Below, piece by piece: positions 3,098 through 26,483 of a stretch of 26,483 nucleotides of DNA. Made by a program: the position numbers and the translations under genes. Origin of the DNA: Candidatus Scalinduaceae bacterium (GTDB lineage Bacteria > Planctomycetota > Brocadiia > Brocadiales > Scalinduaceae); the NCBI GenBank assembly GCA_046759445.1, contig JBHICG010000046.1, positions 1 through 26,483 of the forward strand. Direction: 5' to 3'. Within the stretch, counting starts at the first letter, position 1; each line of letters starts with the position of its first letter. The notes beneath the pieces are model-generated. The model saw only the letters and a list, made by a program, of their open reading frames with translations, was not told where the DNA came from and ran no database searches.

Positions 3098-3195
3098 CAA
3101 CCCTTCTTACCAATAAACTACAAGAGGATAATTGCGCTCTCCAAAGGCCAATAAAACTTCTGCCGTAACAACTTCTATCCACCCTCCTAACACTT

Positions 3196-3813: not shown

Positions 3814-4434
3814 GTTAATGTTCCATGGTTTCAATTATATGACATGAGAAAGTTGTAACTTCTTTATTTAAAAATTAAGAGGTTTCTGCTGAGAAGCTTA
3901 ATAGTCATTTTAATAACAAACTATAAACAAGATATATTCCCACAAAATATATAAACAGGAAAAAAAGATTGGTAGCATTTAATACCTTGTGAATTCCATA
4001 GCTTGTTGATGTTAAATCTCTGTTGGAGCTATAATTAGTTATCGAATGCGGAATATTTAATGGAAGGGTAATTATTATTGTAATTGATTATTTAAGTAAC
4101 TCAACAAGATAAACTGCTCGGGAGTTTACACAGGCAGCAACTGTTTTGAGAAGGTATGTTATTGCTCATCGTTTTTGGGTCCGATGTTACTATGGTTGTA
4201 TGGTGTGTTTGGGTGAGGGAAAGATGAAGATACATTAAAGATCAAGCTGTAAGCGAATTAATCGAAGACAAATACGATACTGATCTGAGCAATCCCTTTT
4301 AGGGAGTGCAGTATATTAATATGCACAAGCTTTAATAAATCTATTCCAAGATATATCACACTTTACAAAATATATATTGAATTTATAAATGGGCAGACTA
4401 TTTCCACTTTACTCTTTAATCATCTGATGATCTG

Positions 4435-6171: not shown

Positions 6172-6236
6172 ATGTAAAAAATGTTACGACCTGGCATAAC
6201 TTTGTTAAAGCATATGTCTTTCAAAGCAAATTAGAA

Positions 6237-7319
6237 CTAATTAAAGACAGCTTTCCCGATCTTGCGCCTGAGATTCATTAGCAATTCACGAAACATTAAT
6301 TTTTTATTTTCCAATGCCTTCATGTGAAACGGTAGGACGCAACCACAACGTTCACAGTCTGCAAGCGGTCCCATCATGCAGGGGCGTTTCCTTCTTCCCT
6401 GCGGGTCAAGGCAATAAGTTACTTGTTTAAAAAGACAATTCATGGTTATTTCTCTGCACCTGTCTGACTTCATCATCTCAAGTACGTATCTTGGTACGGA
6501 AATAAAATCACCGTATTTTTTTTCTTTTAGCCTTATTAATTTATCAATAACATGATCCCTTAATTCCCATCCTGGCCACAATTCATCATTATATTGCAGG
6601 CCTTTAACAGGCGTGTGCATCTGAAATAAGCAACCTCTTACGGACGTACCACTCCATTCTTCAAGAAATGCTTCTATGCCCTCGTAGTTGGTCTTATTTA
6701 CGACCATGGATACAATTATTTTTAAATCTGGTCGGTCAATGTTCTTCTTTATTTTAGCATGACATCCTTTTCCACGAATTGCATCATGCATATCTTCTGG
6801 CCCATCTATTGCAATATAGAAATTAACATCTGGCCATTCTGGTAACGGAATAGTCCCATTAGTAGCAACCAGGTTTGATTTGAAATACTTCATGCCCTTT
6901 TCTATCAAGTCTTTGCGCAAGAGAGGTTCTCCGCCTATCCATGAACATTGATAAAATGGGAAATCTGTATCCTTTAGTTCCTCTAGTTTATCAATCCATT
7001 CTCCATCTGTAAGTTCCCTCTCAACCTCATAATCATGTGCATAGAAGTAACAGTGCTTGCAGCGGAGATTGCATCTGTTTGTAATATCTAATGAACTAAT
7101 AGCGCCTTTTGGTTTGCCAATAATGTCAAATTTGCCAAGGTCATATAATTTAAAGAGGAACTTTGTCGATTTTTTGCCTATCGTACTTGAAGAAATGTTG
7201 AAGAGCGTATCTCTAAATGTCTTCTTTGGTCCTATCTTCTTCCGATTCATTAATTGTGAATCTGCATCTATAGATTTTTCAAGCTTTTCTTTAACTATCA
7301 TATGAGTACAATTAAACAA
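6237..7319 (-). CDS. Radical SAM protein with C-terminal Cys-rich (SPASM/twitch-like) region
   Basis: CNLRCKHC, GGEP, TNG motifs; C-terminal C..C..PC..DCERCGC. True start is probably slightly downstream. Confidence 0.88.
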   Translation of the reverse strand: MFNCTHMIVKEKLEKSIDADSQLMNRKKIGPKKTFRDTLFNISSSTIGKKSTKFLFKLYDLGKFDIIGKPKGAISSLDITNRCNLRCKHCYFYAHDYEVERELTDGEWIDKLEELKDTDFPFYQCSWIGGEPLLRKDLIEKGMKYFKSNLVATNGTIPLPEWPDVNFYIAIDGPEDMHDAIRGKGCHAKIKKNIDRPDLKIIVSMVVNKTNYEGIEAFLEEWSGTSVRGCLFQMHTPVKGLQYNDELWPGWELRDHVIDKLIRLKEKKYGDFISVPRYVLEMMKSDRCREITMNCLFKQVTYCLDPQGRRKRPCMMGPLADCERCGCVLPFHMKALENKKLMFRELLMNLRRKIGKAVFN

Positions 7320-7441
7320 ATAATCTACTGAAAAGCAATAAATATTTAAGGTAACAAAATACGAATTTTAGATAAGTGAAATATTTGAAATTATGAAGTG
7401 AAACTTCTTACAGTAGAAGTTGGAAAGTCATAGACGTCTAC

Positions 7442-7993
7442 TTATTTACCTTTATGATTATAACAATTTTCTTTCAATACTCCAATGTAAGGCAGGTTCC
7501 TGTATTTGTTGTCAAAATCTAAGCCGTAGCCTACCACAAAGTTATCTTCTATTTCAAAACAACAATAGTCCGGAACAATATTCATTTCTCTTCTTGCAGG
7601 TTTATTAAGGAACGTGCATACTCTTATTGATAGGGGATTGTGCTTTTCGATTATTTGTTTAATTTTAGCGAGAGTCCTCCCTGTGTCCAGTATGTCATCC
7701 ACAATAAGGACGTGTTCGCCCTTTATGTCTAGTCTGATTTCGTTAATAATTTCAATTTCCTTTTTTGGAGAAGTAACACCTCCGATATAGGCGTTAACCC
7801 TAATAGTATCTATCTTAACGGGAAAAGTAAGAAGTCGAATAAGGTCCGAAAGAAATATTAGGCTGCCATTTAAGATACTGATTATTGTCAGGTTTTTTTG
7901 TTTGTAGTCAATGGCAATTTTTTTTGCCAGTTTTTTTACCTCGTCTTTGATTCTGCTTTCGTTGATTAGGACTTTTTCGATGTCTTTTTCCAT
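7442..7993 (-). CDS. hpt: Hypoxanthine phosphoribosyltransferase
   Basis: PRPP-binding VLIVDDILDTGRTL, plus FVVGYGLD and YRNLPYIG. Confidence 0.95.
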   Translation of the reverse strand: MEKDIEKVLINESRIKDEVKKLAKKIAIDYKQKNLTIISILNGSLIFLSDLIRLLTFPVKIDTIRVNAYIGGVTSPKKEIEIINEIRLDIKGEHVLIVDDILDTGRTLAKIKQIIEKHNPLSIRVCTFLNKPARREMNIVPDYCCFEIEDNFVVGYGLDFDNKYRNLPYIGVLKENCYNHKGK

Positions 7994-8449
7994 TTGTAAG
8001 ACTCAGGAGTTTAACCTTTAGTTTAGAAATTTCTGAGCACTAAAGGATTATAACTGACATTATCTTTTCAGTCTAGAATTGAATTATGTTTCCTGATGGT
8101 TTAAGGACTTCTTTAAGACGTTTATATGCATGTAGTATGGTAGTCGTAAGAGTAATCACTATATAAATATAATCATTATGATACATAATTTATTAAGATT
8201 CAATCGTAAAGTAAAAAGATTTCCAAACACATTGTCCGGTATGTTTGGCTCCGTTTAAAAATAAATATAAAAGACTTGTTGAATAGTTCATGTAATAATT
8301 CTTGTTGAATGGGTATGGGAGGATAAAGATAAAACCACATTACGAGAAGATGACTTTGCTTATGCTTGATTGAAGAAATTGAGGTATTGTTAGAGCCGTG
8401 ATCACGAGCCAGCATATAGATGTGTTAAATGTATAAGAAGTAAGCTGAG

Positions 8450-10000
8450 CTATTGACAGTCTTTACATAATAAGTTACTAATCATTTTGTTTAACTGTTT
8501 AAAATCCAATGGCTTATCAAGAATAAAATCAACTCCTTCTTTTACATAGTCAAATTTATCCTTAACTAATTCGCAACCCGTAATTAATACGAAAGGGGTT
8601 TTTGCCGTTTTTCTAATAGCATCAAGGTCTTTTATATATCTGGCAACTTTCCAACCATTTACTTTTGGCATCGCCAGATCACACAACACAATATCAAATA
8701 TCTTGTTCTTGTACATCCTTAAACCAGTATTTGCATCATTTGCCGTAAATACACTATGACCGTGTTTTTCAAGCATAATCTTCATCATATCCAGTATTAC
8801 TTCCTCTTCTTCTATTACGAGGATTTTGGCTTTATAATTAGAGATTAATTTGCCTTTATTCTCACACTCCGCTATTTCTGCCTGAAACAAAGGCATTTCT
8901 ATATGTACGGTAGTACCTTTGCCATAACAACTATCTATGCTAATCTCACCGCCATACCTTGTTACTATCTTATCCACTATGCTCATACCAAGGCCAGTCC
9001 TTTTTATTCCTTTTGTTGAGAAGAATGGTTCAAAAATCTTGTCTTTGATCTCATCTCTTATTCCGATTCCATTGTCTGCAATAGAAAGAATGACACTTTT
9101 GGCGTCAAATTTTGCACTGAATTTAATTTTGCCCCCGTTTGGCATAGCATCAACACTATTATTAATAATATTTACGAATACCTCTCTTAATTCTGATGGG
9201 TTAGATCTGATATAATGTTTTGAAGGAATCAGGAAATTTTTGATAATCTTGTATTCAATCCCCTTTGCTTGTGCTTCTCTTTTCCATCTTGGCATAGTAA
9301 ATTCAATCGCTTCATTAACGACTTCAGCCAGGTTGGCATGTAGTACGCCAGAATAATTTGGTTTAGTCCTTGAGAATTGCTGAATCTTATCTACAATTGT
9401 TGCTCCGTCCCTTGCTGCTTTCTCAATAATATTAATAGTATCCGAAACATGTGCATTAGTACTTTCAAGCTTCAACTTTAAGATATCTAGATAACCAAGT
9501 ATTATCCCCAATATATTATTTAACTCATGTGCTACACCACTAGACTGTAAACCTAAAGCATTTAATTTATCAATTTGAGATAATTTATTCTCAAGCTTTA
9601 TTCTTTCTGTAATATCCCTTAAAACACCTTCAATTTGTACAATCTCATCGTTTTCACCATAATTTACTCTTGCATTTAATTCTAGATGTTTGATATGGCC
9701 TTCTACTGTCTTTATTCTAAACTCAAAGCATTCTATATACTCTTTCTTGCTTAAAAACAAGTTTTTAAAAAAATCGACAAATCTTTTGCTATCTGCTTCA
9801 TAAATCAACTCATACAAGTTTACGTTATTAATAACATCTTTGGAGCAACCAAAGACTCTTTGGCCGGCAGGGTTAATTGTGGTAACGTTTAATTCCTTAT
9901 CTGCAGTAAAGAATATGTCTAAGATATCTTCAATAAGTGTTTTATATTTTAATTCTGACTCTACTAATTTCTCCTTAAAGATTTCTTTTCTCTTACGCAT
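8450..10000 (-). CDS. PAS-domain hybrid sensor histidine kinase / response regulator
   Basis: PAS domain, H-box AHELNN, N-box NIINNSVDAM, DNGIG, FEPFFSTKG, TGLG, receiver DIVLCDLAMP...KP. Confidence 0.93.
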   Translation of the reverse strand: MRKRKEIFKEKLVESELKYKTLIEDILDIFFTADKELNVTTINPAGQRVFGCSKDVINNVNLYELIYEADSKRFVDFFKNLFLSKKEYIECFEFRIKTVEGHIKHLELNARVNYGENDEIVQIEGVLRDITERIKLENKLSQIDKLNALGLQSSGVAHELNNILGIILGYLDILKLKLESTNAHVSDTINIIEKAARDGATIVDKIQQFSRTKPNYSGVLHANLAEVVNEAIEFTMPRWKREAQAKGIEYKIIKNFLIPSKHYIRSNPSELREVFVNIINNSVDAMPNGGKIKFSAKFDAKSVILSIADNGIGIRDEIKDKIFEPFFSTKGIKRTGLGMSIVDKIVTRYGGEISIDSCYGKGTTVHIEMPLFQAEIAECENKGKLISNYKAKILVIEEEEVILDMMKIMLEKHGHSVFTANDANTGLRMYKNKIFDIVLCDLAMPKVNGWKVARYIKDLDAIRKTAKTPFVLITGCELVKDKFDYVKEGVDFILDKPLDFKQLNKMISNLLCKDCQ

Positions 10001-10425
10001 TATAATTTACTTTGAAACTTCAGTGGGATTTATTGTGATTCTCTTATGTAGTTCTTATAGGGAGAAAAATAAATATTGGGATAATGTAACAAAATAGTAC
10101 AGGCGTGTATCATATTAATACAATAGCCTATTGATAAAAAAAGTTAAGAATTTGAACTGTTATGGAAATAGAATGTTAAAAGACGGTTTATGAAGGTTTA
10201 TGTTAGCTCATTTCTTTTATGAAAAAATCAAAGTAACATTTATTACCGTGGTCATTAATTCACTAAGGATTACACAATAAACATGCCCAAGTGTAGGATT
10301 TGTAGACGTTTTTACTAATGGAGGGTATTATGTTATGCATTTTAGCTTGTAATCTTAGACAGCTTTTTGTAAGATTTCGAACTAACTCAAACTTTCGAAG
10401 ATATAATAGTTAAAGAAAAGACATA

Positions 10426-11172
10426 ATGATAAATATGGATTTCTCAAACACTACTTTGCAGGTAAAGGAAAGGATGGAGCCTTTTTTCAATGAAATACTT
10501 TCTTCTTTTGGTAATCATGTCAAATCTATCTATATTATAGGTAGTGCAGTTACAAATGATTTTGATGAAAAAACGTCGGATGTCGACTCGCTAATTGTGC
10601 TAAAAGAAAAGAACCTGGACATCTTTGATTTTATAGCACCTATCGGCAAAAAATATGGCAAGAAGAAAATAAGGGCTCCAATAATTATGACCAATGACTA
10701 TATAAGGTCATCACTTGAGGTGTTTCCGATACAATTTCTCAATATTAAAATAATAAATAAGCTGATTTATGGAGAAGACGTTCTTAAAGACATCACGATA
10801 GACAAATCTGATTTGCGGCTTGTATGTGAAAGGGAATTAAAGGGTTGGATACAAAATTTAGGCCAGGCATATATAAAATCCCTTGGTAATGACCGCATAA
10901 TAAGGGAATTGTTTAAAAGCTTCCTCTCTTCGTACATTCCCATATTCAGGGCAATACTTTTCCTTCACGACAGAGAATTACCACAGGAAAGAAATATAGT
11001 ACTTGATGAATTGGAAAAAGCCATGAAGATAAGGGTGGATGTATTCAGGGAATTAGTAAATATAAAGACTGGTAAATACAAACCAACACATGGTGACCTG
11101 ACTAGGGATTTTCGAGATTTGTATAATACCCTTGATGACATAGCAAATAAAATTGATAAGTTCGAGGTATAA
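10426..11172 (+). CDS. Nucleotidyltransferase-domain protein (type usually linked to LemA/TPM)
   Basis: GSAV...SDVD motif; SLEVFPIQF and LRLVCERELKG segments; adjacent to the TPM gene. Confidence 0.78.
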   Translation: MINMDFSNTTLQVKERMEPFFNEILSSFGNHVKSIYIIGSAVTNDFDEKTSDVDSLIVLKEKNLDIFDFIAPIGKKYGKKKIRAPIIMTNDYIRSSLEVFPIQFLNIKIINKLIYGEDVLKDITIDKSDLRLVCERELKGWIQNLGQAYIKSLGNDRIIRELFKSFLSSYIPIFRAILFLHDRELPQERNIVLDELEKAMKIRVDVFRELVNIKTGKYKPTHGDLTRDFRDLYNTLDDIANKIDKFEV

Positions 11173-11173
11173 A

Positions 11174-11974
11174 ATGTTTGGTAGAAAATATTTTATAATG
11201 TTTATGTCTATTATATTTTTATTATATCCGTTTGCTATAACGGCATTTGGAGAGGTGGATATCCCCACACCTAAAATGCACGTCGAAGACCGTGCAAAAA
11301 TAATAGATAAACAAACCGAAAACAGATTAAACGCCTTTCTTTCAGAACTGGAGACCAAGACTGGCGCTCAGATGGTAGTTTTAACTGTTAAAACCACTGG
11401 AGGAATACCCGTTGATCAGTTTTCAGTTGACCTTGCTAACAAGTGGAAGCTTGGTCAGTTTGAAAAGGATAATGGTATACTTATGGTCATTGCAAAGAAA
11501 GATAGAAAATATAGCATAGAAGTAGGTACAGGCCTGGAAAAGACATTGCCAAATGCTTTTTGCGAGAACGTGGGGAAAGCCGTATTCATTCCTAACTTCA
11601 GAGCTGGCAACTATAGTCAGGGCATTTATCAGGGCGCAATTGCAATCATCAATAGAGTAGCTCAAGATGCCGGTGTTACTATTACGGGCGCTCCCAGTGT
11701 AGTACACCAACCTAGAAGAAGGGGCGTGGGGTTTTCATTTTTACCTATTCTCCTGATTTTCATATTGCCCATGTTGATGGGAAGGAGAAGGGCCTACGGT
11801 CGAAGCCGCTGGGGGGGTATGCCGTTCTTCATGATGATGCCGTTTATGTTTGGTGGATTCGGCGGTTTTGGCGGACATAGAGGTGGAGGTTCTTACAGCA
11901 GCGGGGGATTTGGTGGTTTTGGTGGCGGACTTGGCGGTGGCTTTGGAGGTGGTGGAGCATCAGGAGGCTGGTAA
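11174..11974 (+). CDS. TPM-domain (YgcG-like) membrane protein with Gly-rich tail
   Basis: Signal peptide, WKLGQ..KDNGIL, IEVGTGLE, TM segment, GGGFGGGGASGGW end. ATG 11174 follows the upstream stop. Confidence 0.92.
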   Translation: MFGRKYFIMFMSIIFLLYPFAITAFGEVDIPTPKMHVEDRAKIIDKQTENRLNAFLSELETKTGAQMVVLTVKTTGGIPVDQFSVDLANKWKLGQFEKDNGILMVIAKKDRKYSIEVGTGLEKTLPNAFCENVGKAVFIPNFRAGNYSQGIYQGAIAIINRVAQDAGVTITGAPSVVHQPRRRGVGFSFLPILLIFILPMLMGRRRAYGRSRWGGMPFFMMMPFMFGGFGGFGGHRGGGSYSSGGFGGFGGGLGGGFGGGGASGGW

Positions 11975-11978
11975 ACAA

Positions 11979-12011
11979 TCAACAACCACTCCTAAAAGAG
12001 GTGGTTGTTGA
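11979..12011. terminator. Hairpin between convergent TPM and hsp20 genes (also the putative end of an IS200-like remnant)
   Basis: TCAACAACCAC-N11-GTGGTTGTTGA, a perfect 11-bp stem 4 nt after the TPM stop. Confidence 0.6.
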
Positions 12012-12155
12012 CTAAAATTTCCCATAGAATACATCCTTTTCTCTCTTAGGGTAGCCCCCTTGATATCTTAAGGAGGTATTCTTTTTTAACAAGTTTTAAT
12101 CACTACCCTACCCGCATAGCAAAGCTGGGACACACCAGCACAGATGGTGGTTTAA
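11979..12155 (-). mobile_element. Putative non-autonomous IS200/IS605-like element with tnpA deleted
   Basis: Two subterminal hairpins (11979-12011 and ~12131-12154) and a 12/13-bp stem (12026-12038/12070-12082) that covers an SD-like AAGGA just before an orphan ATG at 12025. Confidence 0.5.
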
Positions 12156-12171
12156 GGTATTAATTAAGGTA

Positions 12172-12591
12172 TTATGCCGACTTCACCTCAATCTGTCTCT
12201 GCTTATATGTTTGTTTTTTGGGAAGCGTAATCCTTAATACACCATTTGACATCACAGATTTAATCTTATCCACGTCAATAGTTTCGTTCAAGACGAAGTG
12301 TCTATGGAAATGGCCTTCGTCGTACTCTCCATAAAGCACCTCATCATCACGTTCTTCCTCATGTACCACATGACCGGTAACAACGATCTCATCTCCCTGC
12401 AATTTCATGTTCACGCCGTCTTTACTAACGCCGGGCATATCCATTTCTATTATTACTTCATTTTCATATTCAAAAACGTCAGCAGCGGGCACATACCATT
12501 CGTCTGCATGTGAGACAAGGTGAGGCTCTGCTTTGTGAGTGCTAACATCCAGTTTCTTTTTTTCAACATGTTTCTGTTGTTTCTTTGGCAT
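12172..12591 (-). CDS. Hsp20/alpha-crystallin small heat shock protein
   Basis: PAADVFE, DMPGV, FHRHF, NGVLRITLPK; GAGGA RBS before ATG 12591. Confidence 0.93.
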   Translation of the reverse strand: MPKKQQKHVEKKKLDVSTHKAEPHLVSHADEWYVPAADVFEYENEVIIEMDMPGVSKDGVNMKLQGDEIVVTGHVVHEEERDDEVLYGEYDEGHFHRHFVLNETIDVDKIKSVMSNGVLRITLPKKQTYKQRQIEVKSA

Positions 12592-12637
12592 TGTTATATC
12601 CTCATAATAAGTTTGCAATATAATCAATCATTATTAA

Positions 12638-13042
12638 TTACCCAGCTTTTACAGAGATCTGCTTTGTTTCATCAGTATCTTTTTTGTGAAGAGCGATGGT
12701 GAGAATACCGTTAGATAAGACAGATTCTGCCCTGGAAGTGTCAACGTCTCTGGGCAGAGCAATAGTACGGTTAAAGAATCCGTCGTTCCTCTCCTCATGA
12801 AAAGAGACAACTCCCTCATGAGGTTCTATTTTCCTCTCCCCCTGAATAGTTATTGTTCTTTCTGCAACCGTTACGTTAAGGTCCTTTGCATTAATCCCTG
12901 GTAACTCAGCCCTGATAAGAAAGTTTTTATCCTTAACAGAAATCGTAATCGGGGGAAATTTGCCGCCTACAAGCAGACGATTAACTTCATCATTAAGGGT
13001 GTCAAACCAATCATAGTCTTCAAAGATGTTCATTAATTCCAT
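12638..13042 (-). CDS. Hsp20/alpha-crystallin small heat shock protein
   Basis: FPPI, AELPGI, IQGERK, FNRTIALP, NGILTIAL; GGAGG RBS. Confidence 0.93.
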   Translation of the reverse strand: MELMNIFEDYDWFDTLNDEVNRLLVGGKFPPITISVKDKNFLIRAELPGINAKDLNVTVAERTITIQGERKIEPHEGVVSFHEERNDGFFNRTIALPRDVDTSRAESVLSNGILTIALHKKDTDETKQISVKAG

Positions 13043-13141
13043 AATATACCCTCCAAAGAACTTTTAAAAAGATATTTTCTTCAAATGCGACTTTGTTTAT
13101 CACTACTCAAAATGACACTCACACATTCTTATCAAATCGTA

Positions 13142-13342
13142 TTATGTCCAGGGGGCAAAATAATCTATGTGGTAAACGTCTATAATCAACCAGAAAAGTT
13201 TTGTCCAGGCAGTCGTAATCCCGCGCAACTTCTCTGGATCGTTCTTCAGCTCCTCAGCAAAGAGATCCTCAAGCCCGAAGATAGGTACATGTACGGCACC
13301 AACCCAGCGAACATGATTCCATAATGCTTCATCATGTAATCG
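13142..13342 (-). pseudogene. Start-less C-terminal fragment of a protoglobin/globin-like protein
   Basis: 66-aa open frame with no start: RLHDEALWNHVRWVGAVHVPIFGLEDLFAEELKNDPEKLRGITTAWTKLFWLIIDVYHIDYFAPWT*. Resembles a globin F-helix His (VGAVH) and H-helix AWxK. Confidence 0.5.
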
Positions 13343-14952: not shown

Positions 14953-17900
14953 TTAATTTACGCTTGTATGATTCTTAATTGTACCAAGTCTACTTTCCAT
15001 CCTTTGGTGAGCCTGGTGCATAAAAGCCTCAATACGTGTTTCTTCATTGGATTCCTCTTGACCATCAAACGCCAGCTTTAAACATGGAATACCTCCATGT
15101 TCTCTTTGAAATTTTTCCAGTACTGCGTTAACTACAGTTCCTGGCATGCAATGGAAAGGTGTAACATTTACAATACCATCAAAATTTTCCTCTATATATT
15201 CTACTGCTCTACCCATGCTAATAACCGGATCTCCTTTGTATGAGTCATGGACGTATTGTCTTCCTTTCAAAATCAACTTTTTTATAGAACTTTCTTTAAA
15301 GAAATTACTTATACATTTTTTAAATGGTCGAGATATTCTAAACGCATCATACCTTTGTACTATTTCAGAAACTAACTCTTTTGTATAAGCACTTATATCC
15401 CTATCCCTTATACAATCTTCTCTCCGACGATGACCTATATAATTTATCCACTCACCAAAGGGTGGAATTACCACTTTTCCTCCGAGTATTTCTATCCTTC
15501 TCACAATAAAATTATTAGAGAATTCATTACCGCGAACATATGTTTCACCAATGATGCCAATTAAGGGTTTCTGGATACTTTTGTCTACTGCTATCTTATT
15601 AAAAGCATCCCTTGCATCTTTAGCTACTTGTAAAAGGTCAAGTTCGTATTCTATTGCATGTTCTGCTTTTCTGAGATGTTGTTTATAAACAATATCTGAT
15701 TCATATTTGTGGATTTCATACGGCCGTACTTCATGCAATATTTTCTGCATAAAGTCTACAAGAACAAATCCATTCCATGCAAGCTTACGGAATTTTGTTC
15801 CCAATTTGCTCAAATCTTCTTGGTAATCATCTCCTTGATCCAACGTATAGATTTGTACTTGAGGAAATCCGAGGTCATCTAGTATCATGCGGTGCATCTT
15901 ATTGTATTGGCCAAATCTGCATGGGCCAGATGCTGTAGCCATAAAGAAGGTACTTCTCTCTGGATCAAAATCAGGGCTTAGTAACTTTTTGACAATATCT
16001 CCCGTTGTTAGGATTGCAGGGTAACACTCTTTCCCTGATGTGTATTTTCTTCCCATTTCCAGGCTTTTCTTATCAGACATTGGTAAGGCTTTAGCGTTAA
16101 TACCATTAATTCTCATAGCAGCAGCAACCATTCTTCCACAATCATTCATATAAGGGATATACAAGGTCTTTTTCTTGTTTAAGGATAATTTCTCTTTCCC
16201 ATTTATGCCATTCTTAAAGTCTTTAATCCTGGAATTTTTCAAACTATCTAAAAATGCCTCACAGCGTGTCATTACCCCAGCATCTGCACTGTGTTCATCT
16301 ATCTCTATCGTTAAGAAAGGTTTTCCTCCTACCTCTTTTGGGAAAAACTTCAAAATAAAAGAATCAGGCCCGCATCCAAAGTTTGTTATATAAAGCGCAT
16401 ACAGCCTTTTATCCCTGGCAATCATCCTCGCAGCCGCAAGTATCTTCTGTCCGTATTTCCAGTACATATTTGGATAATCCTTCGATATCTCCTCTATGTC
16501 CAGAGTTAAGAAATCCATTGGAATTGCTAATATACCCATATCCCTGAGCTTGTCAGGGAGATTCAAATTAATACCAGAATCACAACCGTTATAGGGGCGA
16601 CTTATAATCACAAATGCCGTCTCATCGTCTCCTAAATTGTCCAGTACTTCTTTGCCTCTCTCTTCAAGCTTTTTAGAAAATCTACTCTGAGAATCTTTTG
16701 CCCGAATAATGGCATTCTCAACAACTTTACCCCTTTTACCTATATCTTTCGCAATTTGCCGTAGTGTTTTGTCCAAAAATAATTCACCATACTCAAAGTG
16801 AATTATCGGTTGCAAAACCTTGAATCTTCTACTGTCCAGATCAATTGCAGAACGAACTATGTATGGAAGACATTGTACATAAGGACATGCGTAAGAGTGC
16901 GTTAACTTGGAAGATGCATGTGTCATATTTATTACGCTTGGCAAGAACAAATAATCAATATCTCTATATAACATATCCAAAACGTGTCCATGTGCTACCT
17001 TTATGGGAAAACATGTCTCCGTATTAACATTTTCCAACCCTTTATCAATAATTTCACGATTTGTATCACCTGAAGTTATTACATCAAAACCTAATTCTGT
17101 AAAGAAAGCCTTCCACATGGGATACAACTCGAAAAAAGTAGAAGCGCGTGGAATACCTATACGTTTCCCTAATGGCTTTTCAGGTCTATCTTTAGGATAA
17201 ATGGTATGTAGATATCTTTTTCTTTCATTAAACAACCTGGGTAAATTACCAGTCTTCCTGTCCTTTTTCTCATCATCATACTTGCCGCAACGACTTCCAT
17301 AATGAAGAGGTGATTCTCCACTTATACTTACTTTTCTTATCTCACATATGTTTGAACAATCCTTGCATACAAACGATAACATCTCATACTTCCTATTCCT
17401 TAAGTCAAAGCCCTTAAAGTTAGATTTGTCCCATGTGCACTCTTCTATTGCTATTATGGCAGAACCTATCGCACCCATAATATCATGATGAGTCGGCACT
17501 ATTATCTTCTTACCCGTCACTTTCTCAAAAGCTGCCTTAACACCTCTGTTTGCAGCCACCCCTCCTTGGAAAAAGATAGAATCTCCAATCCTTCTCTTCT
17601 CAACAACACGATTGATGTAGTTCAACACTATAGAATAACTTAATCCCGCTAAAAGGTCATCCTTATGTACTCCTATCTGCTGATGATGATTGAGATCTGA
17701 TTCCATAAAAACTGTACATCTTTCTCCAAGATGTGATGGACAACATGAGCTTAATGCTCTTTTACCGAATTCATTCTTAATGTTAATATCCAGCTTATCA
17801 GATTGTTCTTCAAGAAATGAACCCGTTCCCGCCGCGCATACCTTGTTCATAGTAAAATCAACTATAGCTCCATTTTCCATGCTTATATATTTAGAATCCT

Positions 17901-19224
17901 GACCGCCAATCTCAAAGATTGTATCAACTTCCTTATCAACGGCCGCTGCTGCAGTCGCATGCGCCGTTATCTCATTCTTAACTATATCGGCTCCAATAAA
18001 TTCTCCCGTCAGGTATCTACCAGAACCAGTTACACCTACACCCTTTACCATGACCTTGTCACCGACTTCCTCTCCTACTTCAAATAACCCCTGCCTGACA
18101 GCCTCCAGTGGCTTACCAGCAGTCATCAGATAACGTCTTGCCAATACATTCTTATTCCCATCTATAACCACAACATTAGTACTTATAGACCCAACGTCAA
18201 CCCCAACATATGCTTCTATCTTTTTATCTGTATAAAGCTTGTGACTCTTAACATTTATTGCATAATTGTCCCCTTTGAGCTTCTGCAGGTTCGTATTTTT
18301 ACCATTTCGACTTCTTAGATACGCATCTATCTTTTTAAAACCCTTGAATGGAGAATAAATTCCATTATCTATTATGGTTGTCACAGCACCTATTGCTCCC
18401 ATAATCTTGAAGTATTTGGGAATAATGAGTTCTCCTTCAGACAAACCCAGTATGTCTTCAAATGCCCTTACTATCCCCATATTTGCGGCAACGCCACCCT
18501 GGAAGGCTATCGGCTTCACAAATTCCTTTCCCTTTCCTATATTACTCTTAAAATTTCTTGTAAGTGCATAACATAAACCGGCCACAATATCATGAATCGA
18601 TGTGCCAACCTGTTGGAGGTGTATCATATCTGATTTTGCAAAGACACTACACCTGCCTGCTATCCTGGGAGGATTCTTTGACTTTAAAGCTAACATTCCA
18701 AATTCATCCTCTATAGATACACCTATCCTGGCTGCCTGCTGATCCAAAAATGACCCAGTTCCCGCCGCACACATCGTATTCATGGCAAAATCAGATACCT
18801 TTAAACCTGTTCTTCCTTTGGCATCCTTTCTCTCAGACGCCTCATCATACTCAAGTATTATCAGCTTTGAATCCTCGCCACCAAGCTCAATTATCGTCCT
18901 TACCTCAGGGTGTAATACTGACGTTGCCGTACTTTGTGCTACAACTTCGTTAATAAAACTTATGTCTATTATCTCCGCTAATAGCTTTCCTCCAGACCCT
19001 GTAACAGCCATTCCATTTACATCATCAAGGGGGAATCGATTACAAATGTCCCTTAGAATAATTACTACTGTTTCTATAGGTTGACCATGTGACCTTATAT
19101 AGTGATTTTCAAGAACCTCCCTGTCTTCATTCATCAATACTACTTTCACACTGACAGAACCAATATCTATACCAATATATTTCTTACTTTGCTTTTGAAA
19201 ACCTTTCTCTAAACTTCTAATCAT
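14953..19224 (-). CDS. Acyl-CoA dehydratase activase fusion (2x BadF/BcrAD ATPase + DUF2229 + dehydratase-like domain)
   Basis: Two copies of GxDxGS / GGxDSK / CAAGTGSFL / RCxVF / FQGGVAAN; ETCFPIK, FGCGPD, ECYP, GPCRFGQY, PFHCMP. Confidence 0.92.
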   Translation of the reverse strand: MIRSLEKGFQKQSKKYIGIDIGSVSVKVVLMNEDREVLENHYIRSHGQPIETVVIILRDICNRFPLDDVNGMAVTGSGGKLLAEIIDISFINEVVAQSTATSVLHPEVRTIIELGGEDSKLIILEYDEASERKDAKGRTGLKVSDFAMNTMCAAGTGSFLDQQAARIGVSIEDEFGMLALKSKNPPRIAGRCSVFAKSDMIHLQQVGTSIHDIVAGLCYALTRNFKSNIGKGKEFVKPIAFQGGVAANMGIVRAFEDILGLSEGELIIPKYFKIMGAIGAVTTIIDNGIYSPFKGFKKIDAYLRSRNGKNTNLQKLKGDNYAINVKSHKLYTDKKIEAYVGVDVGSISTNVVVIDGNKNVLARRYLMTAGKPLEAVRQGLFEVGEEVGDKVMVKGVGVTGSGRYLTGEFIGADIVKNEITAHATAAAAVDKEVDTIFEIGGQDSKYISMENGAIVDFTMNKVCAAGTGSFLEEQSDKLDINIKNEFGKRALSSCCPSHLGERCTVFMESDLNHHQQIGVHKDDLLAGLSYSIVLNYINRVVEKRRIGDSIFFQGGVAANRGVKAAFEKVTGKKIIVPTHHDIMGAIGSAIIAIEECTWDKSNFKGFDLRNRKYEMLSFVCKDCSNICEIRKVSISGESPLHYGSRCGKYDDEKKDRKTGNLPRLFNERKRYLHTIYPKDRPEKPLGKRIGIPRASTFFELYPMWKAFFTELGFDVITSGDTNREIIDKGLENVNTETCFPIKVAHGHVLDMLYRDIDYLFLPSVINMTHASSKLTHSYACPYVQCLPYIVRSAIDLDSRRFKVLQPIIHFEYGELFLDKTLRQIAKDIGKRGKVVENAIIRAKDSQSRFSKKLEERGKEVLDNLGDDETAFVIISRPYNGCDSGINLNLPDKLRDMGILAIPMDFLTLDIEEISKDYPNMYWKYGQKILAAARMIARDKRLYALYITNFGCGPDSFILKFFPKEVGGKPFLTIEIDEHSADAGVMTRCEAFLDSLKNSRIKDFKNGINGKEKLSLNKKKTLYIPYMNDCGRMVAAAMRINGINAKALPMSDKKSLEMGRKYTSGKECYPAILTTGDIVKKLLSPDFDPERSTFFMATASGPCRFGQYNKMHRMILDDLGFPQVQIYTLDQGDDYQEDLSKLGTKFRKLAWNGFVLVDFMQKILHEVRPYEIHKYESDIVYKQHLRKAEHAIEYELDLLQVAKDARDAFNKIAVDKSIQKPLIGIIGETYVRGNEFSNNFIVRRIEILGGKVVIPPFGEWINYIGHRRREDCIRDRDISAYTKELVSEIVQRYDAFRISRPFKKCISNFFKESSIKKLILKGRQYVHDSYKGDPVISMGRAVEYIEENFDGIVNVTPFHCMPGTVVNAVLEKFQREHGGIPCLKLAFDGQEESNEETRIEAFMHQAHQRMESRLGTIKNHTSVN

Positions 19225-20735: not shown

Positions 20736-21035
20736 TTAATTTTCAGAGAAACGACTTTTCCTTATTGATTTAATCGAAAGAGGATCTTGTAAGTATTTAT
20801 TATGGCATTTATTACACAAATCAAAACGAAACGTCTTATACTCAACATCTTCCATTTCATCTGAATCATCTTCATCAATTTCATCTTCTTCAAAATCATC
20901 TATCAATTCTTCATCAAAGTCATTTTCACATTCCATAGAGTCACATGCTGCGTAAACTTCTATTTTTACTACATACCTATTATCTTCTTCAGTAGCCAAC
21001 GATTTACCACACATATCACAACTGTAGTGAACCAT
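20736..21035 (-). CDS. Small acidic Zn-binding hypothetical protein
   Basis: MVHYSCDMC...D/E-rich...FDLCNKC; AGGAGG RBS before ATG 21035. Confidence 0.8.
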   Translation of the reverse strand: MVHYSCDMCGKSLATEEDNRYVVKIEVYAACDSMECENDFDEELIDDFEEDEIDEDDSDEMEDVEYKTFRFDLCNKCHNKYLQDPLSIKSIRKSRFSEN

Positions 21036-21148
21036 GCACAAATCCCTCCTTTTGTTATAAGGTAGCCAAAACAAACCATTTTGGCTCAAGCCTCAGAGTT
21101 TAAAAACAATTGTCTTGTTCTTTGATAACACAAAAATGATTATTAAAT

Positions 21149-21202
21149 ACTTCATCTTTGTGCATAAAGACTTCATCTTTGTGAATAAAGACTTCATCTT
21201 TG
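21149..21202. repeat. 21-bp tandem repeat, ~2.6 copies
   Basis: ACTTCATCTTTGTG(C/A)ATAAAG twice, then ACTTCATCTTTG. Confidence 0.9.
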
Positions 21203-21429
21203 ACATTAGAAATTTATTATACGTAAATGGTATTTTTTGTCAAGAACATTAGAATTTGAATAAATAAACGTTATAATATCAAAACAATCAATAGATTGTA
21301 AATCGTAAGCCTTGGCACAGCAAGTGCTTAAATACATTTTAAAAGTATCTTTAGAATCTTGATTCCCAACTTTGACTGATAAAAATTCTTCTTAACATTA
21401 ATCAAGATTTAACACAAATTGACTCGCTT

Positions 21430-21795
21430 TTATGACAAATACTTATCCAACAATTTTATAGTCTCTTTGTTGCATAGCCTGTCTTTACCATAGCCTAATT
21501 TTGCTCCACTTTCTATTGCTAAATCCATTTGATCTTTGTAGTTGGTAACCATCATCAATGGTGTTTTGAAACGGCCATCCTTTTTTATTTCCTTTATCAA
21601 CGCTATACCACTTTCCTGATCAAAGGCACCAATCCTGTTAATTATAACCAAATCATAGTTATGTTTTTCTAAGAACCGCTTTGTGTCTTTTAGGAATCTT
21701 GCTCTAGTTACCTTTGCAGTAAAATTGTTTTCTATCAACGAGGTAATTTGAGGGTGATCCAGATCACAATGTCCAACTACTAAAACTTCCTTCAT
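21430..21795 (-). CDS. Atypical single-domain receiver (CheY-like) protein
   Basis: Receiver-like topology VLVVGHCDLDH...YDLVIINR...PLMMVTN...GK; canonical acidic residues are replaced. Confidence 0.7.
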   Translation of the reverse strand: MKEVLVVGHCDLDHPQITSLIENNFTAKVTRARFLKDTKRFLEKHNYDLVIINRIGAFDQESGIALIKEIKKDGRFKTPLMMVTNYKDQMDLAIESGAKLGYGKDRLCNKETIKLLDKYLS

Positions 21796-22359: not shown

Positions 22360-24084
22360 GTGGAATCACAAAATAACAGGCAGGAAAAAGATAGTGAAAA
22401 CGGCAAAAAGCCTTCTGTAGATTTTATAAGAACAATTGTCGCTGAAGATATCAGAACAAACAAGTGGGGGGGGAAGGTAATTACCAGATTCCCTCCGGAA
22501 CCAAATGGTTTTTTACATATTGGACATGCCAAGTCGATTTGTCTAAATTTTGGTATCGCAGATGAAAACAAAGGAGGACGTTGCCACTTGAGATACGATG
22601 ATACCAACCCTATTACGGAAGAAGCCAGATATGTTAATTCTATCCAGGAAGACGTCCGCTGGTTGGGCTGGGATTGGGGAAAACATCTCTACTATGCCTC
22701 GGATTATTTTGAGAAAATGTATGAGTATGCAGTACAGTTGACCAAGAAGGGACTTGCATATGTTTGTGACTTGGCTGCTGACCAGATCACTGAACATCGC
22801 GGAACCCTGACGGCGCCCGGCAAGGATAGCCCTTATCGCAACCGCAGTGTTGAAGAAAACGTGGATATGTTCAGGCGGATGAGAGATGGAGAATTTGAAG
22901 ATGGTTCTCGTGTTCTCCGTGCCAAAATCGATATGAAATCACCCAATTTGAATATGCGTGATCCTGTTATGTACCGTATTCTACATGCAGACCATCACCG
23001 GACCGGTAACAAGTGGTGTATATATCCCACTTACGATTGGGCTCATGGACTGGAGGATTCTATTGAGGGAGTTACGCATTCGATTTGTACGTTAGAATTT
23101 GAGAATCACAGACCTTTATACGATTGGTATCTTGACAAACTGGAAATACATCATCCCCAACAAATCGAGTTTGCCCGTTTAGAACTTACTTATACTGTTA
23201 TGAGTAAGCGAAAACTATTACAGTTGGTTGACGAGGGACACGTGAAAGGTTGGGACGATCCTCGAATGCCAACTATTTCCGGCATGCGAAGGCGCGGATA
23301 TAGCCCGGAATCCATTTGTGAATTCTGCAAATGTATTAGTGTAAGCAAGTTTAACAGTACTATCGATGTCGCACTGCTGGAACATTGTTTACGGGAAGAC
23401 CTGAATAAGACGTCCAATCGCGTAATGGCCGTGTTAAGACCTTTAAGAGTCGTCATAGATAACTATCCTGAGAATGAAGTTGAATGGATGGATGCACATA
23501 ATAACCCTGAAGACCCAAACGCCGGTACCAGAAAAGTTCCTTTTTCAAAGGTGTTATATATCGAACAGGATGATTTCATGGAAGAACCTCCCAGGAAGTT
23601 TTATCGTTTATCACCCGGAAGAGAAGTCAGGTTGCGTTATGCATATTTTGTGATCTGTACTGATGTCGTAAAGGATGACAAAGGCCGGATTGTCGAATTG
23701 CACTGCAGCTATGATCCGGCTACGCGTGGCGGCAATGCCCCTGACGGACGTAAAGTCAAATCAACCATTCACTGGGTATCTGTGCCTAATGCCCTGAAGG
23801 CCGAAGTTAGATTGTATGACCATCTTTTTACAAAGGAACATCCGGAAGATGTGGCAGAGGGAGATGATTTCAAATCAAATCTGAATCCGAATTCACTTCA
23901 GGTTCTATCAGACTGTCTGGTAGAGCCCGGCCTTAAAGAGGCAAAAGCATTAGATCGATTTCAATTTGAAAGGCTTGGTTATTTTTGTATCGACCCTGAT
24001 ACTTCGCAGGACAATCTTGTCTTCAATCGAACTGCAACCCTCCGTGATACCTGGGCAAAAATTAAAAAGAAACAGCAAAAATAG
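22360..24084 (+). CDS. glnS: Glutamine--tRNA ligase
   Basis: [17 protein letters not shown] (HIGH), VMSKRKL (KMSKS-like), [17 protein letters not shown]. Confidence 0.97.
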
Positions 24085-24209
24085 GAGTCAGCTATTTTTC
24101 TGACAGGATAACAGGATAGAAGTGGGAATACACTTGAAACAATTCAGATATACTATAAAATCCGTTACTATACAGAAACTGTAGAAGAACTTGTTAGGGA
24201 TGTAAAGAC

Positions 24210-24563
24210 ATGGAAACCAACATAGCAATAATATTTTCATTAGCTGCGTACAAGATAGTAAGTCTATTAGTTGGGCTTAGTTTTTCTTACATGGGTTTTA
24301 AGTTATTCATCGCTGGGATATGGGGCAAGGCGGGTGAACTGGATGCGCAATTTGGTGAAAATAAATTGATTTTGAAAAAAGCAGCTCCTGGAACATTTTT
24401 TGTGTTGTTCGGAACAATTATAGTTGGCCTCACAATTTGGAGAGGCCTTGAATATAAAAATATAATTGAAAAACTACCGCACACACCAGTTCCGCACTCT
24501 TCCTCACACATGCTAGAACCACTACCAAACAAACTACCATTTATAAAAGGAGATAATAAATGA
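24210..24563 (+). CDS. Small hypothetical membrane protein (2 TM), cargo-like
   Basis: Two hydrophobic segments flanking LKKAAPGTFFVLFG; TTGAAA-N16-TAAAAT upstream (24134-24161). Confidence 0.75.
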   Translation: METNIAIIFSLAAYKIVSLLVGLSFSYMGFKLFIAGIWGKAGELDAQFGENKLILKKAAPGTFFVLFGTIIVGLTIWRGLEYKNIIEKLPHTPVPHSSSHMLEPLPNKLPFIKGDNK

Positions 24564-24691
24564 AAATACGAATGATCCTCGTTTATGTTACATTAACCTT
24601 ACTGTCATTTCCTTCATATGCAGGGCCTCCTTTAGATAATGAAAAGACGCAAGAATTATATGACAAGAATCAAAAAGGTGTCACATCTTGA
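24560..24691 (+). pseudogene. Signal-peptide-bearing ORF apparently truncated by the Y1 element end
   Basis: ATGA overlap with the upstream gene and AGGAG RBS. MKIRMILVYVTLTLLSFPSYA|GPPLDNEKTQELYDKNQK-GVTS*; the stop lies inside the inverted repeat. Confidence 0.6.
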
Positions 24692-24846
24692 ATAGTGAAT
24701 AACATATTGACATAAATAAAGTGATATGATATTGTCTCGGTATGACAAGGCAATTGGAATCAAAAAGGTGTCACATCTTGAATAGTGAATAACATATTGA
24801 CATAAATAAAGTGATATGATATTGTCTCGGTATGACAAGGCAATTG
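24667..24846. repeat. Exact 90-bp tandem duplication (24667-24756 = 24757-24846)
   Basis: Unit contains 10 bp of flank, the left 24-bp IR, the promoter and the first 5 transposase codons. Confidence 0.95.
24797..24825 (+). promoter_or_regulatory. Sigma70-type promoter of the transposase (duplicated at 24707-24735), probably leaderless
   Basis: TTGACA-N17-TATTGT; ATG lies 6 nt after the -10 box and there is no SD. Confidence 0.6.
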
Positions 24847-25800
24847 CGCATTGAATATGAAGGTGCATTTTATCACGTTCTATCACGAGGGAACGAGCGA
24901 AAAGAGATTTTTCGGGATGATAAAGACCGTAGCTTGTTTACAGAAATACTTGGGGAAATGTCTGCAAGGTTTTCCGTTGACATCTTTGCGTATGTACTCA
25001 TGGGTAATCACTATCATTTATTGCTCATGACTAACAGACTAAATATTTCGAAAAGCATGCAGTGGTTAGGAGTTACCTATACACGACGGTTTAACATAAG
25101 GCATCGTCGTAGCGGGCATTTATTTCAGGGGCGGTTTAAATCATTTCTCATTGAAAATGATCAATATCTTTTAATACTTTCTTGTTATGTTCATCGGAAT
25201 CCATTACGGGCAGGGATTGTAAGACGATTGGTAGATTACCAATGGAGTAGCTATAAAATATATGCTTATGGCAAACCATCTCCTGAATGGTTAAGGACAG
25301 TTGTTCTTCTTTCTCAAATCCCTGGAAAAGATAAAAACAGGGGATATAAGGAAATAGTTCAAAATTATTCCAAAGAGGAGAAGAGGATATGGGAGGATTT
25401 TCGGCATGGTTCGCTTTTCGGGAGTAAAGAGTATTGCGATTATATTAAGTCTAAATACATATCAAAAAAGAAGCCGGACGTTGAAATTCCTCAAAAACGC
25501 CTGGTTTTAAGAGAGGAAGATTTGAACACAACAATAAGAAAGGCTGCTTCCGCTTTAGGATGCGATATCAGTAATCTCATTAATCCTAAGAGGATAAGTG
25601 GCTTAGATAAAGATAAACGTGACATACTGATATTATCATTATGGAATACAGGTTTATACAGGAATTATGAGATTGCAAAAATATTTAATATTAGTTATTC
25701 TTCCGTCAGCAAACAAGTAAGCAATATAAGGTTGAATTTAAAGAAAAAATCACAAATAAGAAAATTATTTGAAAAGGCTAATTCACTATTCAAGATGTGA
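24832..25800 (+). CDS. REP-associated-type tyrosine (Y1_Tnp, HUH) transposase with C-terminal HTH
   Basis: [13 protein letters not shown] motif [22 protein letters not shown] (catalytic Tyr), WSSY, C-terminal [18 protein letters not shown]. Confidence 0.92.
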
Positions 25801-25860
25801 CACCATCCACCAAGATGTGACACCATCCACCATCCTGACACCATCCACCATCCACCCACT
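25791..25860. repeat. Stuttered right junction: 20-bp tandem repeat decaying into CACCATC units
   Basis: CAAGATGTGACACCATCCAC twice (25791-25830), then CATCC TGACACCATCCAC CATCCAC CCAC. Confidence 0.9.
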
Positions 25861-25863
25861 TTT

Positions 25864-26483
25864 CCGGACAGGTGGTAAGTGGTGTATATATCCTACTTAT
25901 GACTGGGCTCATGGTCTGGAGGATTCTATTGAGGGAATTACACATTCAATATGTACGTTAGAATTTGAGAATCACAGACCTTTATATGACTGGTATCTTG
26001 ATAAGCTGGAAATTCACCATCCCCAACAAATCGAGTTTGCCCGTTTGGAGCTTACGTATACTGTTATGAGTAAGCGAAAACTTTTGCAGTTGGTTGACGA
26101 GGGACATGTGAAGGGATGGGATGACCCTCGAATGCCAACTATTTCAGGCATGCGAAGACGCGGATATAGTCAGGAATCCATTCGCCAATTCTGCAAGCGT
26201 ATTAGTGTTAGCAAGTTTAAGAGTACTATTGATGTCACACTGCTGGAACATTGTTTACGGGAAGACCTGAATAAGACATCTAATCGTGTAATGGCAGTTC
26301 TAAGACCCTTAAGAGTAGTCATAGATAACTATTCTGAAAAAGAAGTTGAATGGATGGATGCACTTAATAACCCTGAAGACCCAAACGCCGGTACCAGAAA
26401 AGTTCCGTTTTCAAAGGTGTTATACATAGAACAGGATGATTTCATGGAAGAACCTCCCAGGAAGTTTTATCGTTTATCACCCG
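25864..26483 (+). pseudogene. glnS: Second, 5'-truncated copy of glnS (codon 214 onward), runs off the window
   Basis: Gap-free alignment to 22998-23617 (offset 2866). Hand count about 56 differences in 620 nt; frame open; lacks the glnS 5' end and HIGH motif. Confidence 0.95.

Follow-up and report, generated by a model that had tools for sequence, protein, structure and literature searches.

How does an essential gene come to be followed by a transposase gene and then by a second, diverged copy of its own 3′ part? The question is raised by glnS, the gene for glutamine--tRNA ligase (GlnRS), in a 26,483-bp stretch of DNA from Candidatus Scalinduaceae bacterium (contig JBHICG010000046.1 of GenBank assembly GCA_046759445.1; hereafter the window), which is the whole of a contig from a short-read metagenome assembly and thus one contig only. 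The source is a Scalindua-like anammox planctomycete, the nearest relatives of both GlnRS and the transposase, a Y1 protein of the TIRYT type, all being from Candidatus Scalindua or Scalinduaceae metagenome-assembled genomes (MAGs). In the original prediction, made from the sequence alone, a circle composed of a 3′ part of glnS, cargo genes and the Y1 element had come from a related strain and recombined into glnS, leaving one complete chimeric gene and one displaced 3′ half. Our analysis points to two glnS alleles from different lineages on either side of a TIRtron, and we favour, with moderate confidence, the view that this is a genuine structure, left behind when DNA of a related Scalindua lineage was inserted at a homologous anchor.

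On the contig, two diverged glnS alleles bracket the transposase gene

The arrangement involves one complete and one partial copy of glnS, between which the following segments can be compared:

22360..24084, plus strand: glnS copy 1 (glutamine--tRNA ligase, 574 aa), intact (open reading frame (ORF) list, TIGR00440, Pfam)
22998..23617, plus strand: arm X, within glnS, codons 214-419 (direct repeat family D1, ungapped comparison)
25864..26483, plus strand: arm X′, second glnS allele, codons 214-419, 5′-truncated and running off the contig (direct repeat, Pfam, tblastn)

Copy 1 is intact, as had been predicted: it matches the full TIGR00440 model (positions 1-524 of 524; 735.7 bits against a cut-off of 425.8), and all three GlnRS domains are matched in Pfam (tRNA-synt_1c, tRNA-synt_1c_C and tRNA-synt_1c_C2). 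The two arms form a direct repeat (22998-23617 and 25864-26483) that is ungapped over 620 nt at an offset of 2866 bp, with 56 mismatches (90.97% identity). Of the 206 codons from codon 214 onwards, 42 show synonymous and 11 non-synonymous differences and there are no stops, which reproduces exactly the hand count in the prediction. By codon position the differences number 8, 3 and 45, so that 45 of the 56 lie at third positions, and 195 of the 206 residues are identical; tblastn aligned GlnRS residues 214-419 to copy 2 at 94.7% identity. The Nei-Gojobori estimates for arm X against arm X′ were dS 0.457 and dN 0.025, giving an omega (dN/dS) of 0.055 (Fisher p on sites 1e-22). Pfam placed copy 2 on profile positions 176-313 of the catalytic domain and on part of the anticodon-binding domain, while GlnRS residues 1-213 have a single tblastn match in the window. 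The mismatches are evenly distributed along all 620 nt, right up to the joint, and the 120 nt 5′ of each arm are unrelated to one another.

A fragment with neither a 5′ half nor obvious expression signals of its own could be a pseudogene, the product of an ancient duplication that is decaying in place. An old in-situ duplicate with one neutral lineage would be expected to show an omega of about 0.5 together with indels. At an omega of 0.055, and over 620 nt without indels or stops, the arms are better described as selected alleles than as a gene and its decaying duplicate. Each copy moreover carries only two residues unseen in 119 relatives (C320 and C325 in copy 1; Q316 and T338 in copy 2), which argues that neither arm has decayed. 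On the substitution pattern this explanation is already refuted, and we give it practically no weight. The same pattern agrees with the predicted pair of alleles under purifying selection with a dN/dS well away from 1. On this evidence the two arms are alleles from different lineages, each shaped by purifying selection, and copy 2 belonged to a working glnS of another lineage until recently.

The closest relatives of the two copies differ, being P0009 (95.1%) and P0002 (94.7%) for copy 1 and P0005 (95.6%) for copy 2, which has K332, K372 and L380 in common with P0005. The GC content at third codon positions is 0.37 to 0.41 in the glnS segments and copy 2 alike and does not discriminate their origins.

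The unit between the arms is a TIRtron

The Y1 transposase gene lies between terminal inverted repeats (TIRs), the left of which is present twice:

24667..24846, no strand: perfect 90-bp tandem duplication, two units (family D2, 100% identical)
24767..24790, plus strand: TIR-L, 24 nt, with a second copy at 24677-24700 (inverted repeats I1, I2)
24832..25800, plus strand: TIRYT gene, Y1 HUH transposase of 322 aa with a C-terminal tail resembling a helix-turn-helix (HTH) (PF01797, motifs)
25781..25804, minus strand: TIR-R, 24 nt, overlapping the TIRYT stop codon (inverted repeats I1, I2)

That a Y1 transposase is bounded here by inverted repeats was correctly foreseen. The protein matches PF01797 with 51.9 bits (cut-off 23), Y1_Tnp being the only Pfam family found, and its HUH motif (HYH in GNHYHLL) and tyrosine motif (YVHRNP) are intact in translation. 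TIR-L and TIR-R are 100% complementary over 24 nt, and their 14-nt core occurs four times in the window, always at the Y1 unit, against 0.18 occurrences expected by chance. Each unit of the 90-bp duplication holds a left TIR, a promoter-like site (TTGACA-17-TATTGT, at 24707-24735 and 24797-24825) and the first 15 nt of the TIRYT gene; the number of units may be the assembler's guess. The 8 nt that precede the duplication, TATGACAA, are the same as the unit-internal TATGACAA and may be the shortened remains of a third unit. The C-terminal tail gave no Pfam HTH match at E≤0.001; a match resembling sigma-70 region 4 (residues 254-306, E 3.6e-4) lies below the cut-off. Among relatives, the protein of locus L071 scores 32.1 bits with Bac_DnaA_C (cut-off 31.5), and that of locus L070 matches HTH_AsnC below cut-off.

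Three other identities were considered for the unit and rejected. A RAYT/REPtron would have hairpins of GTAG-type repetitive extragenic palindromes (REP) where the unit has 24-nt TIRs; the protein scores 71.5 bits with NF047646 (REP_Tyr_transpos), below the cut-off of 80, and the TIR core is found nowhere else in the window. Membership of IS200/IS605 was discarded on a score of 18.7 bits with NF033573 (IS200; cut-off 55), a length of 322 aa and the presence of terminal inverted repeats, and an IS91/ISCR transposase on Y1_Tnp as the sole Pfam family and on ends that are perfect inverted repeats. The unit belongs instead to the TIRtron/TIRYT class, which has already been described: Di Nocera et al. 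(2013; PMC3733652) defined it by a RAYT-like Y1 gene between TIRs with a GGGGWSAS-like tip, and it corresponds to subclass 2.1 of Quentin et al. (2018; PMC6006769), TnpA-REP-like Y1 proteins with a C-terminal HTH (Bac_DnaA_C, HTH_23 or HTH_28).

The TIR tip in the window, GGTGTCAC, fits GGGGWSAS at 7 of 8 positions, and relatives have GGGGTCA.... TIRtrons are widespread: one genome scan with the TIRYT protein gave 232 confirmed relatives from many phyla, for which 79 loci were kept. A strict GGGGWSAS tip was present on both sides at 14 of 67 testable loci, and a relaxed G[GT]GTCA tip with its reverse complement around the gene at 49 of 67 (none at shifted control positions). Five anammox TIRtrons (L002, L003, L004, L010 and L020) are 79 to 94% identical to that of the window at the nucleotide level. 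They match it only within 24758-25816, with homology starting at 24758-24767 and ending at 25804-25816, and their flanks are unrelated; the TIR-bounded unit of 1.04 kb is thus a discrete relocating entity. Relatives of TIRYT were found in 27 of 72,556 plasmid records, all below 60% identity and three near full length, and in 1 of 50,697 phage records.

Several of these relatives lie in rearranged surroundings. In L002, a 2.9-Mb long-read Scalinduaceae contig, the region 7900-13300 has tandem TIRYT copies at 8970-9938 (3′-truncated) and 9927-10974, solo left-end fragments at 8570-8633 and 13228-13283, direct repeats that are 87 to 92% identical, and an inverted duplicate of a small ORF pair that looks toxin-antitoxin-like by eye (no family search was run); this region is a rearrangement hotspot. 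L020, from Candidatus Kuenenia sp. Bin_40 (1-10816), carries TIRYT copies at 5898-6293 (partial), 7938-8918 and 10001-10816. The three copies lie 5 to 9 kb downstream of a whole glnS that ends at 1041, the sole glnS among the 79 loci, a proximity that could be chance or old synteny. In L071 the left TIR tip, CACGGGGTCAGCCCTT, occurs twice within 2990-3040, 27 bp apart from start to start, an echo of the doubled left TIR in the window.

The inserted DNA and its right-hand joint

Besides the TIRtron, the DNA between the arms contains two small ORFs and a short linker:

24210..24563, plus strand: small two-helix membrane ORF of 117 aa, the only intact 'cargo' gene (ORF, no named family)
24560..24691, plus strand: signal-peptide-like ORF of 43 aa, reading into the left inverted repeat (read from sequence)
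25805..25863, no strand: 59-bp linker of nested partial repeats of the TIR-R tip and flank (families D6, D12)

The cargo genes of the original prediction reduce to the intact 117-aa ORF, the second being a 43-aa stump cut by the left repeat. The former has no Pfam or NCBIfam match, and its nearest Atlas clusters are unnamed hypothetical proteins. The latter starts within the stop of the 117-aa ORF (ATGA), has no internal stops and no family match, and is probably a gene cut by the TIRtron insertion. To judge from its sequence, this small 'cargo' resembles what would ordinarily follow glnS in the donor, with a gene of that region interrupted by the Y1 unit. Since the left TIR cuts the 43-aa ORF and the right TIR side adjoins codon 214, the unit sits at a rearrangement joint and not at a simple insertion.

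The 59-bp linker between TIR-R and glnS codon 214 contains a 20-bp sequence twice and an 18-bp sequence twice. Within 25791-25853 the last 14 and 7 nt of TIR-R are repeated, each followed by ATCCAC(CATCC), and these nested repeats look like repeated slipped or abortive right-end events. Compared with Pfam and NCBIfam, the ORFs of 24085-25863 (117-aa, 43-aa and TIRYT) include no integrase or other recombinase family besides TIRYT. The TIR 14-nt core is absent from the glnS breakpoint at up to two mismatches. Searches of the window with Rfam (gathering threshold) and ARAGORN returned no RNA family and no tRNA, so the joint is not a tRNA-type attachment site.

The contig end and the question of one molecule

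The contig ends within arm X′, on a sequence that both arms have in common:

26429..26483, no strand: terminal 55-nt run identical to 23563-23617 (longest exact run between the arms)

It stops exactly after this run, which is the longest exact stretch common to the arms; the probability of such a terminal run is 0.0055. A k of 55 is a common largest k of short-read assemblers. The contig end is an assembly-graph junction where two alleles merge, and the sample clearly contains both glnS alleles.

The two alleles could on this evidence come from a mixture of strains. Two Scalindua populations with glnS about 91% identical would have been assembled together, the contig leaving strain 1 through the TIRtron into the flank of another strain or locus; the two-arm island would then not be one molecule, although a TIRtron beside a 5′-truncated glnS allele would still be real somewhere. 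An end placed precisely where a k=55 graph has its junction (p=0.0055) is what such a mixture predicts. TIRtrons are also repeated in related genomes (tandem in L002, three in L020), and the perfect 90-bp tandem duplication is the type of loop whose copy number assemblers guess. Against a mixture, the contig passes through the 1-kb TIRtron unbroken, and assemblers rarely cross a multi-copy repeat without breaking. The joint, moreover, shares no low-complexity 55-mer with glnS, and the same layout is seen in two sources for which strain mixing is not a concern, the genome of an isolate (L070) and a closed chromosome assembled from long reads (L071). We consider a strain mixture somewhat unlikely, while giving it real weight. 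A de Bruijn contig contains no k+1-mer that is absent from the reads, so the joint from TIR-R to codon 214 must in any case be present in some molecule.

A further unusual glnS was noticed in P0001, an 832-aa GlnRS from a 6.5-kb ENA contig that is 73% identical to that of the window. It has an internal tandem duplication of about 258 residues, exact by eye, which ends in ...FRENPPT and whose units are joined by a short foreign peptide; it may be either another glnS duplication or an assembly loop.

Similar layouts occur at other TIRYT loci

We compared each of the 79 loci with itself and surveyed the flanks of TIRYT genes for direct repeats of at least 100 bp on both sides of the gene, within 3.5 kb. 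The survey used the 52 sequences, the window among them, in which 600 bp or more remained on either side, another 28 being shorter than this, and positions shifted by 4 or 6 kb within the same loci served as controls (n=164). Flanking direct repeats were present in 5 of the 52 (the window, L002, L046, L070 and L071) and in 3 of the 164 controls (p=0.021). Apart from the window, three of these cases have a recognisable host gene:

L070, Geomonas paludis Red736, a culturable isolate: arms at 9436-9920 and 10982-11434; the host gene is an intact DEAD-box helicase gene
L071, closed long-read Zixibacteria chromosome: 314-bp second copy of the 3′ part of an intact rubrerythrin-family host gene
L046, Nitrospirae MAG: 82% identical fragments of a GT2 gene, lying beyond a TIRtron and an RHH-PIN pair

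The first arm of L070 abuts TIR-L and the second starts 2 to 8 bp past TIR-R, with the TIRtron alone between them; in their coding part the arms differ at 3 or 4 of the first 180 nt, an identity of about 98%. The two copies in L071 are 92.7% identical, ungapped, with an omega of 0.16 (p=4.5e-5), and between them lie an ion-channel gene, two ORFs and the TIRtron. Followed in the direction of the host gene, the window, L070, L071 and L046 (4/4) have the same order of intact gene, island and 3′ fragment, and in each of them the host gene is a different one. When the joints of the window, L070 and L071 were compared by eye, no common motif was found. The fifth locus, L002, is ambiguous as a case: its repeats belong to a complex array, in which they lie next to solo TIR fragments.

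Candidates that were dropped include L052, L053 and L037, which proved to be solo element-end fragments, and L065 (Aminicenantes, 7477-9930), where the repeat is on the left side only. In L065 a 517-aa ORF of unknown family has a 624-bp, 99.8% identical partial copy of its 3′ part, which ends about 70 bp before the TIRYT start (10001).

These loci bear on two further explanations. In the first, a duplication of glnS DNA, alone or together with the TIRtron, arose in situ with identical arms, and one arm was later replaced by recombination with a relative's allele, which gave the 9% divergence, the island never having been imported. The L070 arms, about 98% identical in their coding part, are what a young in-situ duplication would look like; tandem and partial duplications are seen in TIRtron regions; and the affinities of GlnRS relatives vary by segment, which is compatible with frequent recombination in the clade. 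Two events are needed, however, where one suffices, and with differences spread evenly up to the joint the replacement would have had to reach across the entire arm, ending no earlier than the breakpoint. L071 likewise shows the divergence of selected alleles (omega 0.16). We regard this sequence of events as improbable.

In the second, the boldest form of the original prediction, TIRYT would act as a site-specific, gene-restoring transposase that cuts in a conserved sequence just 5′ of codon 214 and at the right end, the composite of glnS from codon 214 to its stop, downstream DNA and TIRtron always re-entering the same site in glnS with a replacement 3′ part. Homology does start abruptly at codon 214, with no similarity upstream; the joint has nested TIR-R-tip repeats, and the second arm of L070 begins 2 to 8 bp past TIR-R; and in 4/4 cases the host gene is intact and the extra piece is a 3′ fragment. 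Yet no second glnS case was found, since the one locus of 79 with glnS (L020) has it whole and 5 kb away, and the host genes differ each time. The breakpoint has no TIR-like sequence (14-nt core, up to two mismatches), no chimera breakpoint was detected at 214, and the 5′-truncated GlnRS proteins in the database start at an internal Met (174, 192, 199, 204, 208 or 225) without a pile-up at 214. Those proteins have no foreign N-termini and are uninformative on further 214 breakpoints. We judge this explanation very improbable.

A proposed homology-anchored insertion from a related lineage

The reading that we favour, an insertion of related Scalindua DNA anchored by homology, would proceed as follows. 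In the donor, a TIRtron would have inserted in a gene for a small secreted protein, the second gene after glnS. A segment that begins at glnS codon 214, takes in the rest of glnS and the 117-aa gene and ends shortly after TIR-R would then have closed on itself or been joined illegitimately, and this closure or joining would have created the novel joint in which TIR-R and 59 bp lead into codon 214. The segment would have entered the recipient glnS through a single homologous exchange (Campbell-type) or through one-sided homology. The outcome would be one complete glnS, then the island, then a displaced, 5′-truncated glnS copy. The predicted circle from a related strain fits the layout, which recurs elsewhere; its linkage of both arms in one genome and its Y1-made joint were not borne out. 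What the sequences show is the scar: its anatomy, two arms that are selected alleles of different lineages, a TIRtron that is a discrete unit with other copies in unrelated surroundings, and the recurrence of the layout at other TIRYT loci. That one genome holds both arms, that a circle formed and recombined with the resident gene, and that TIRYT catalysed any part of the joint is what we infer. Because the arms are direct repeats, a precise loss of the island by recombination would be possible.

Several observations weigh against this reading. It comes from a single short-read contig that ends on a shared 55-mer, an end compatible both with two arms in the same genome and with a pair of strains. 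The junction peptide was sought elsewhere in a set of 5.8 billion protein sequences, and among the 120 matches listed only the window's own protein, P0121, has it; in that search the junction ORF found its own protein at 100% identity, the next best among the matches listed reached 83%, and P0121 is single-member, its longest contig being recorded as 26483, the length of the window. The chimeric nature claimed for the complete gene drew no support from informative-site and max-chi-square tests of copy 1 at the protein level: six pairs of relatives gave p values of 0.04 to 0.5, with no significant breakpoint, and the best breakpoints were never at residue 214 and in two cases lay at about 379. 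Either arm may be the native one. The recurrence statistics are only suggestive, striking though the anatomy of these loci is, and the enrichment of Y1 genes beside 3′ duplicates that had been anticipated, seen at 5/52 against 3/164, falls to 4/51 against 3/164 (p=0.056) without the window and to p=0.15 when the ambiguous L002 is left out as well. In L071 and L046 the distance from TIR-R to the joint is 245 bp and about 940 bp, so that there is no constant TIR-R-proximal joint. Homologous exchange at 91% identity, with a longest identical run of 55 nt, is inefficient. Finally, the literature on 'TIRYT', in the portions available, yielded no demonstrated activity.

The TIR-R-tip repeats at the joint are a hint that TIRYT had a part in making it. 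For such a role we also count that the inserted DNA has no other recombinase gene and that the arms of L070 enclose the TIRtron alone. The variable joint distances in L071 and L046, the lack of a common joint motif and the literature just mentioned count against it. Taken further, TIRYT might mobilise the TIRtron together with adjoining host DNA as a circle, the captured gene piece serving as a homology 'address' into the same gene of diverged relatives and leaving that gene whole; this we hold to be doubtful. If true, it would amount to a homology-targeted, gene-restoring and reversible transfer of islands, able to ride on essential genes such as glnS and used across Planctomycetota, Desulfobacterota, Zixibacteria and Nitrospirota. 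If the layout is instead an assembly effect, it serves as a warning: what looks like a gene-restoring island may be the effect of a contig that stops at a shared k-mer.

Other features of the window

Three further regions of the window were noted. A 2.4-kb stretch between two long minus-strand genes (2042-4434) has no ORF longer than 80 aa and no Rfam or tRNA match, and could be non-coding or the remains of a gene. The intergenic positions 21144-21206 hold three 21-bp tandem repeats (TAAAGACTTCATCTTTG...), between a 117-aa acidic, Cys-rich ORF (20736-21089, minus strand) and a receiver-domain ORF (21430-21795, minus strand). The minus-strand gene at 14953-19224 encodes a 1423-aa fusion of two BcrAD_BadFG ATPase domains, DUF2229 and an HGD-D-like end; by its domain content this is a predicted activase-dehydratase-type enzyme typical of anaerobes.

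Comparison with known systems

The window resembles the TIRtron/TIRYT class in its Y1 HUH gene of about 320 aa, in TIRs at a fixed distance in place of REP hairpins and perhaps in the C-terminal tail, which looks HTH-like. TIRs of the class also form dimers and clusters, with which the doubled TIR-L and the nested TIR-R tips of the window may be compared. It differs in that the accessible text of the two papers on the class (PMC3733652, PMC6006769) makes no mention of diverged host-gene brackets, co-mobilised DNA or demonstrated activity.

Gene restoration of another kind is found in phage 21 and e14, which integrate at icd. The host gene is kept whole there by an incoming diverged 3′ end, and the displaced native 3′ piece lies at the far end; a tyrosine integrase, a short att core and replacement pieces of about 150 bp are involved. 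The window has no integrase, and its arm measures at least 620 bp and probably about 1.1 kb. Nor did we find independent integrations with the same target gene and breakpoint: of the 79 other loci, one has glnS near TIRYT, and it is whole. Campbell-type insertion-duplication and homology-facilitated illegitimate recombination, in which one anchor and one novel joint produce direct repeats without a dedicated recombinase, are known mainly from laboratory constructs and transformation experiments, whereas the pattern seen here recurs beside one transposase family in wild genomes.

In the IS200/IS605 family joined-end circular intermediates are normal; its members have subterminal hairpins, no terminal inverted repeats and a TnpA of about 130 to 150 aa. 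A joint between TIR-R and an upstream site is chemically plausible, because joined-end circles are normal chemistry in this family. What TIRYT shares with IS608 and ISDra2 is the Y1 HUH catalytic core, as far as PMC6006769 could be consulted.

A parallel in mechanism is found in ISCR1. The original prediction knew of no such behaviour among HUH transposases, but there is a precedent in the ISCR1 model of Toleman et al. (2006), as summarised in the accessible parts of PMC6834847 and PMC3575428: aberrant rolling-circle transposition produces circles that contain part of the 3′ conserved segment (3′-CS) and are rescued by homologous recombination, a route that yields the 3′-CS duplications of complex class 1 integrons. 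Both systems have a transposase of the HUH superfamily beside a partial direct duplication of a conserved segment, and in both a route through a circle and recombination has been proposed; the ISCR-type trait of a partial direct duplication beyond the element is present in the window, L070, L071 and L046. There are also differences. ISCR1 is IS91-like and lacks inverted repeats, its ends being a distinct oriIS and terIS; its 3′-CS lies on plasmids and not in an essential chromosomal gene, and its arms are near-identical, whereas those of the window are alleles that have diverged by 9%. As far as our searches of the accessible literature go, the bracketed-allele layout is undescribed for the TIRYT class, yet it works like a scenario known for an HUH element. 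Were the layout real and made by the enzyme, it would be the first indication that TIRtrons mobilise neighbouring DNA, and it would extend ISCR1-style 'capture, circle, recombine' from plasmid-borne resistance regions to the chromosomal housekeeping genes of anammox organisms and other environmental bacteria.

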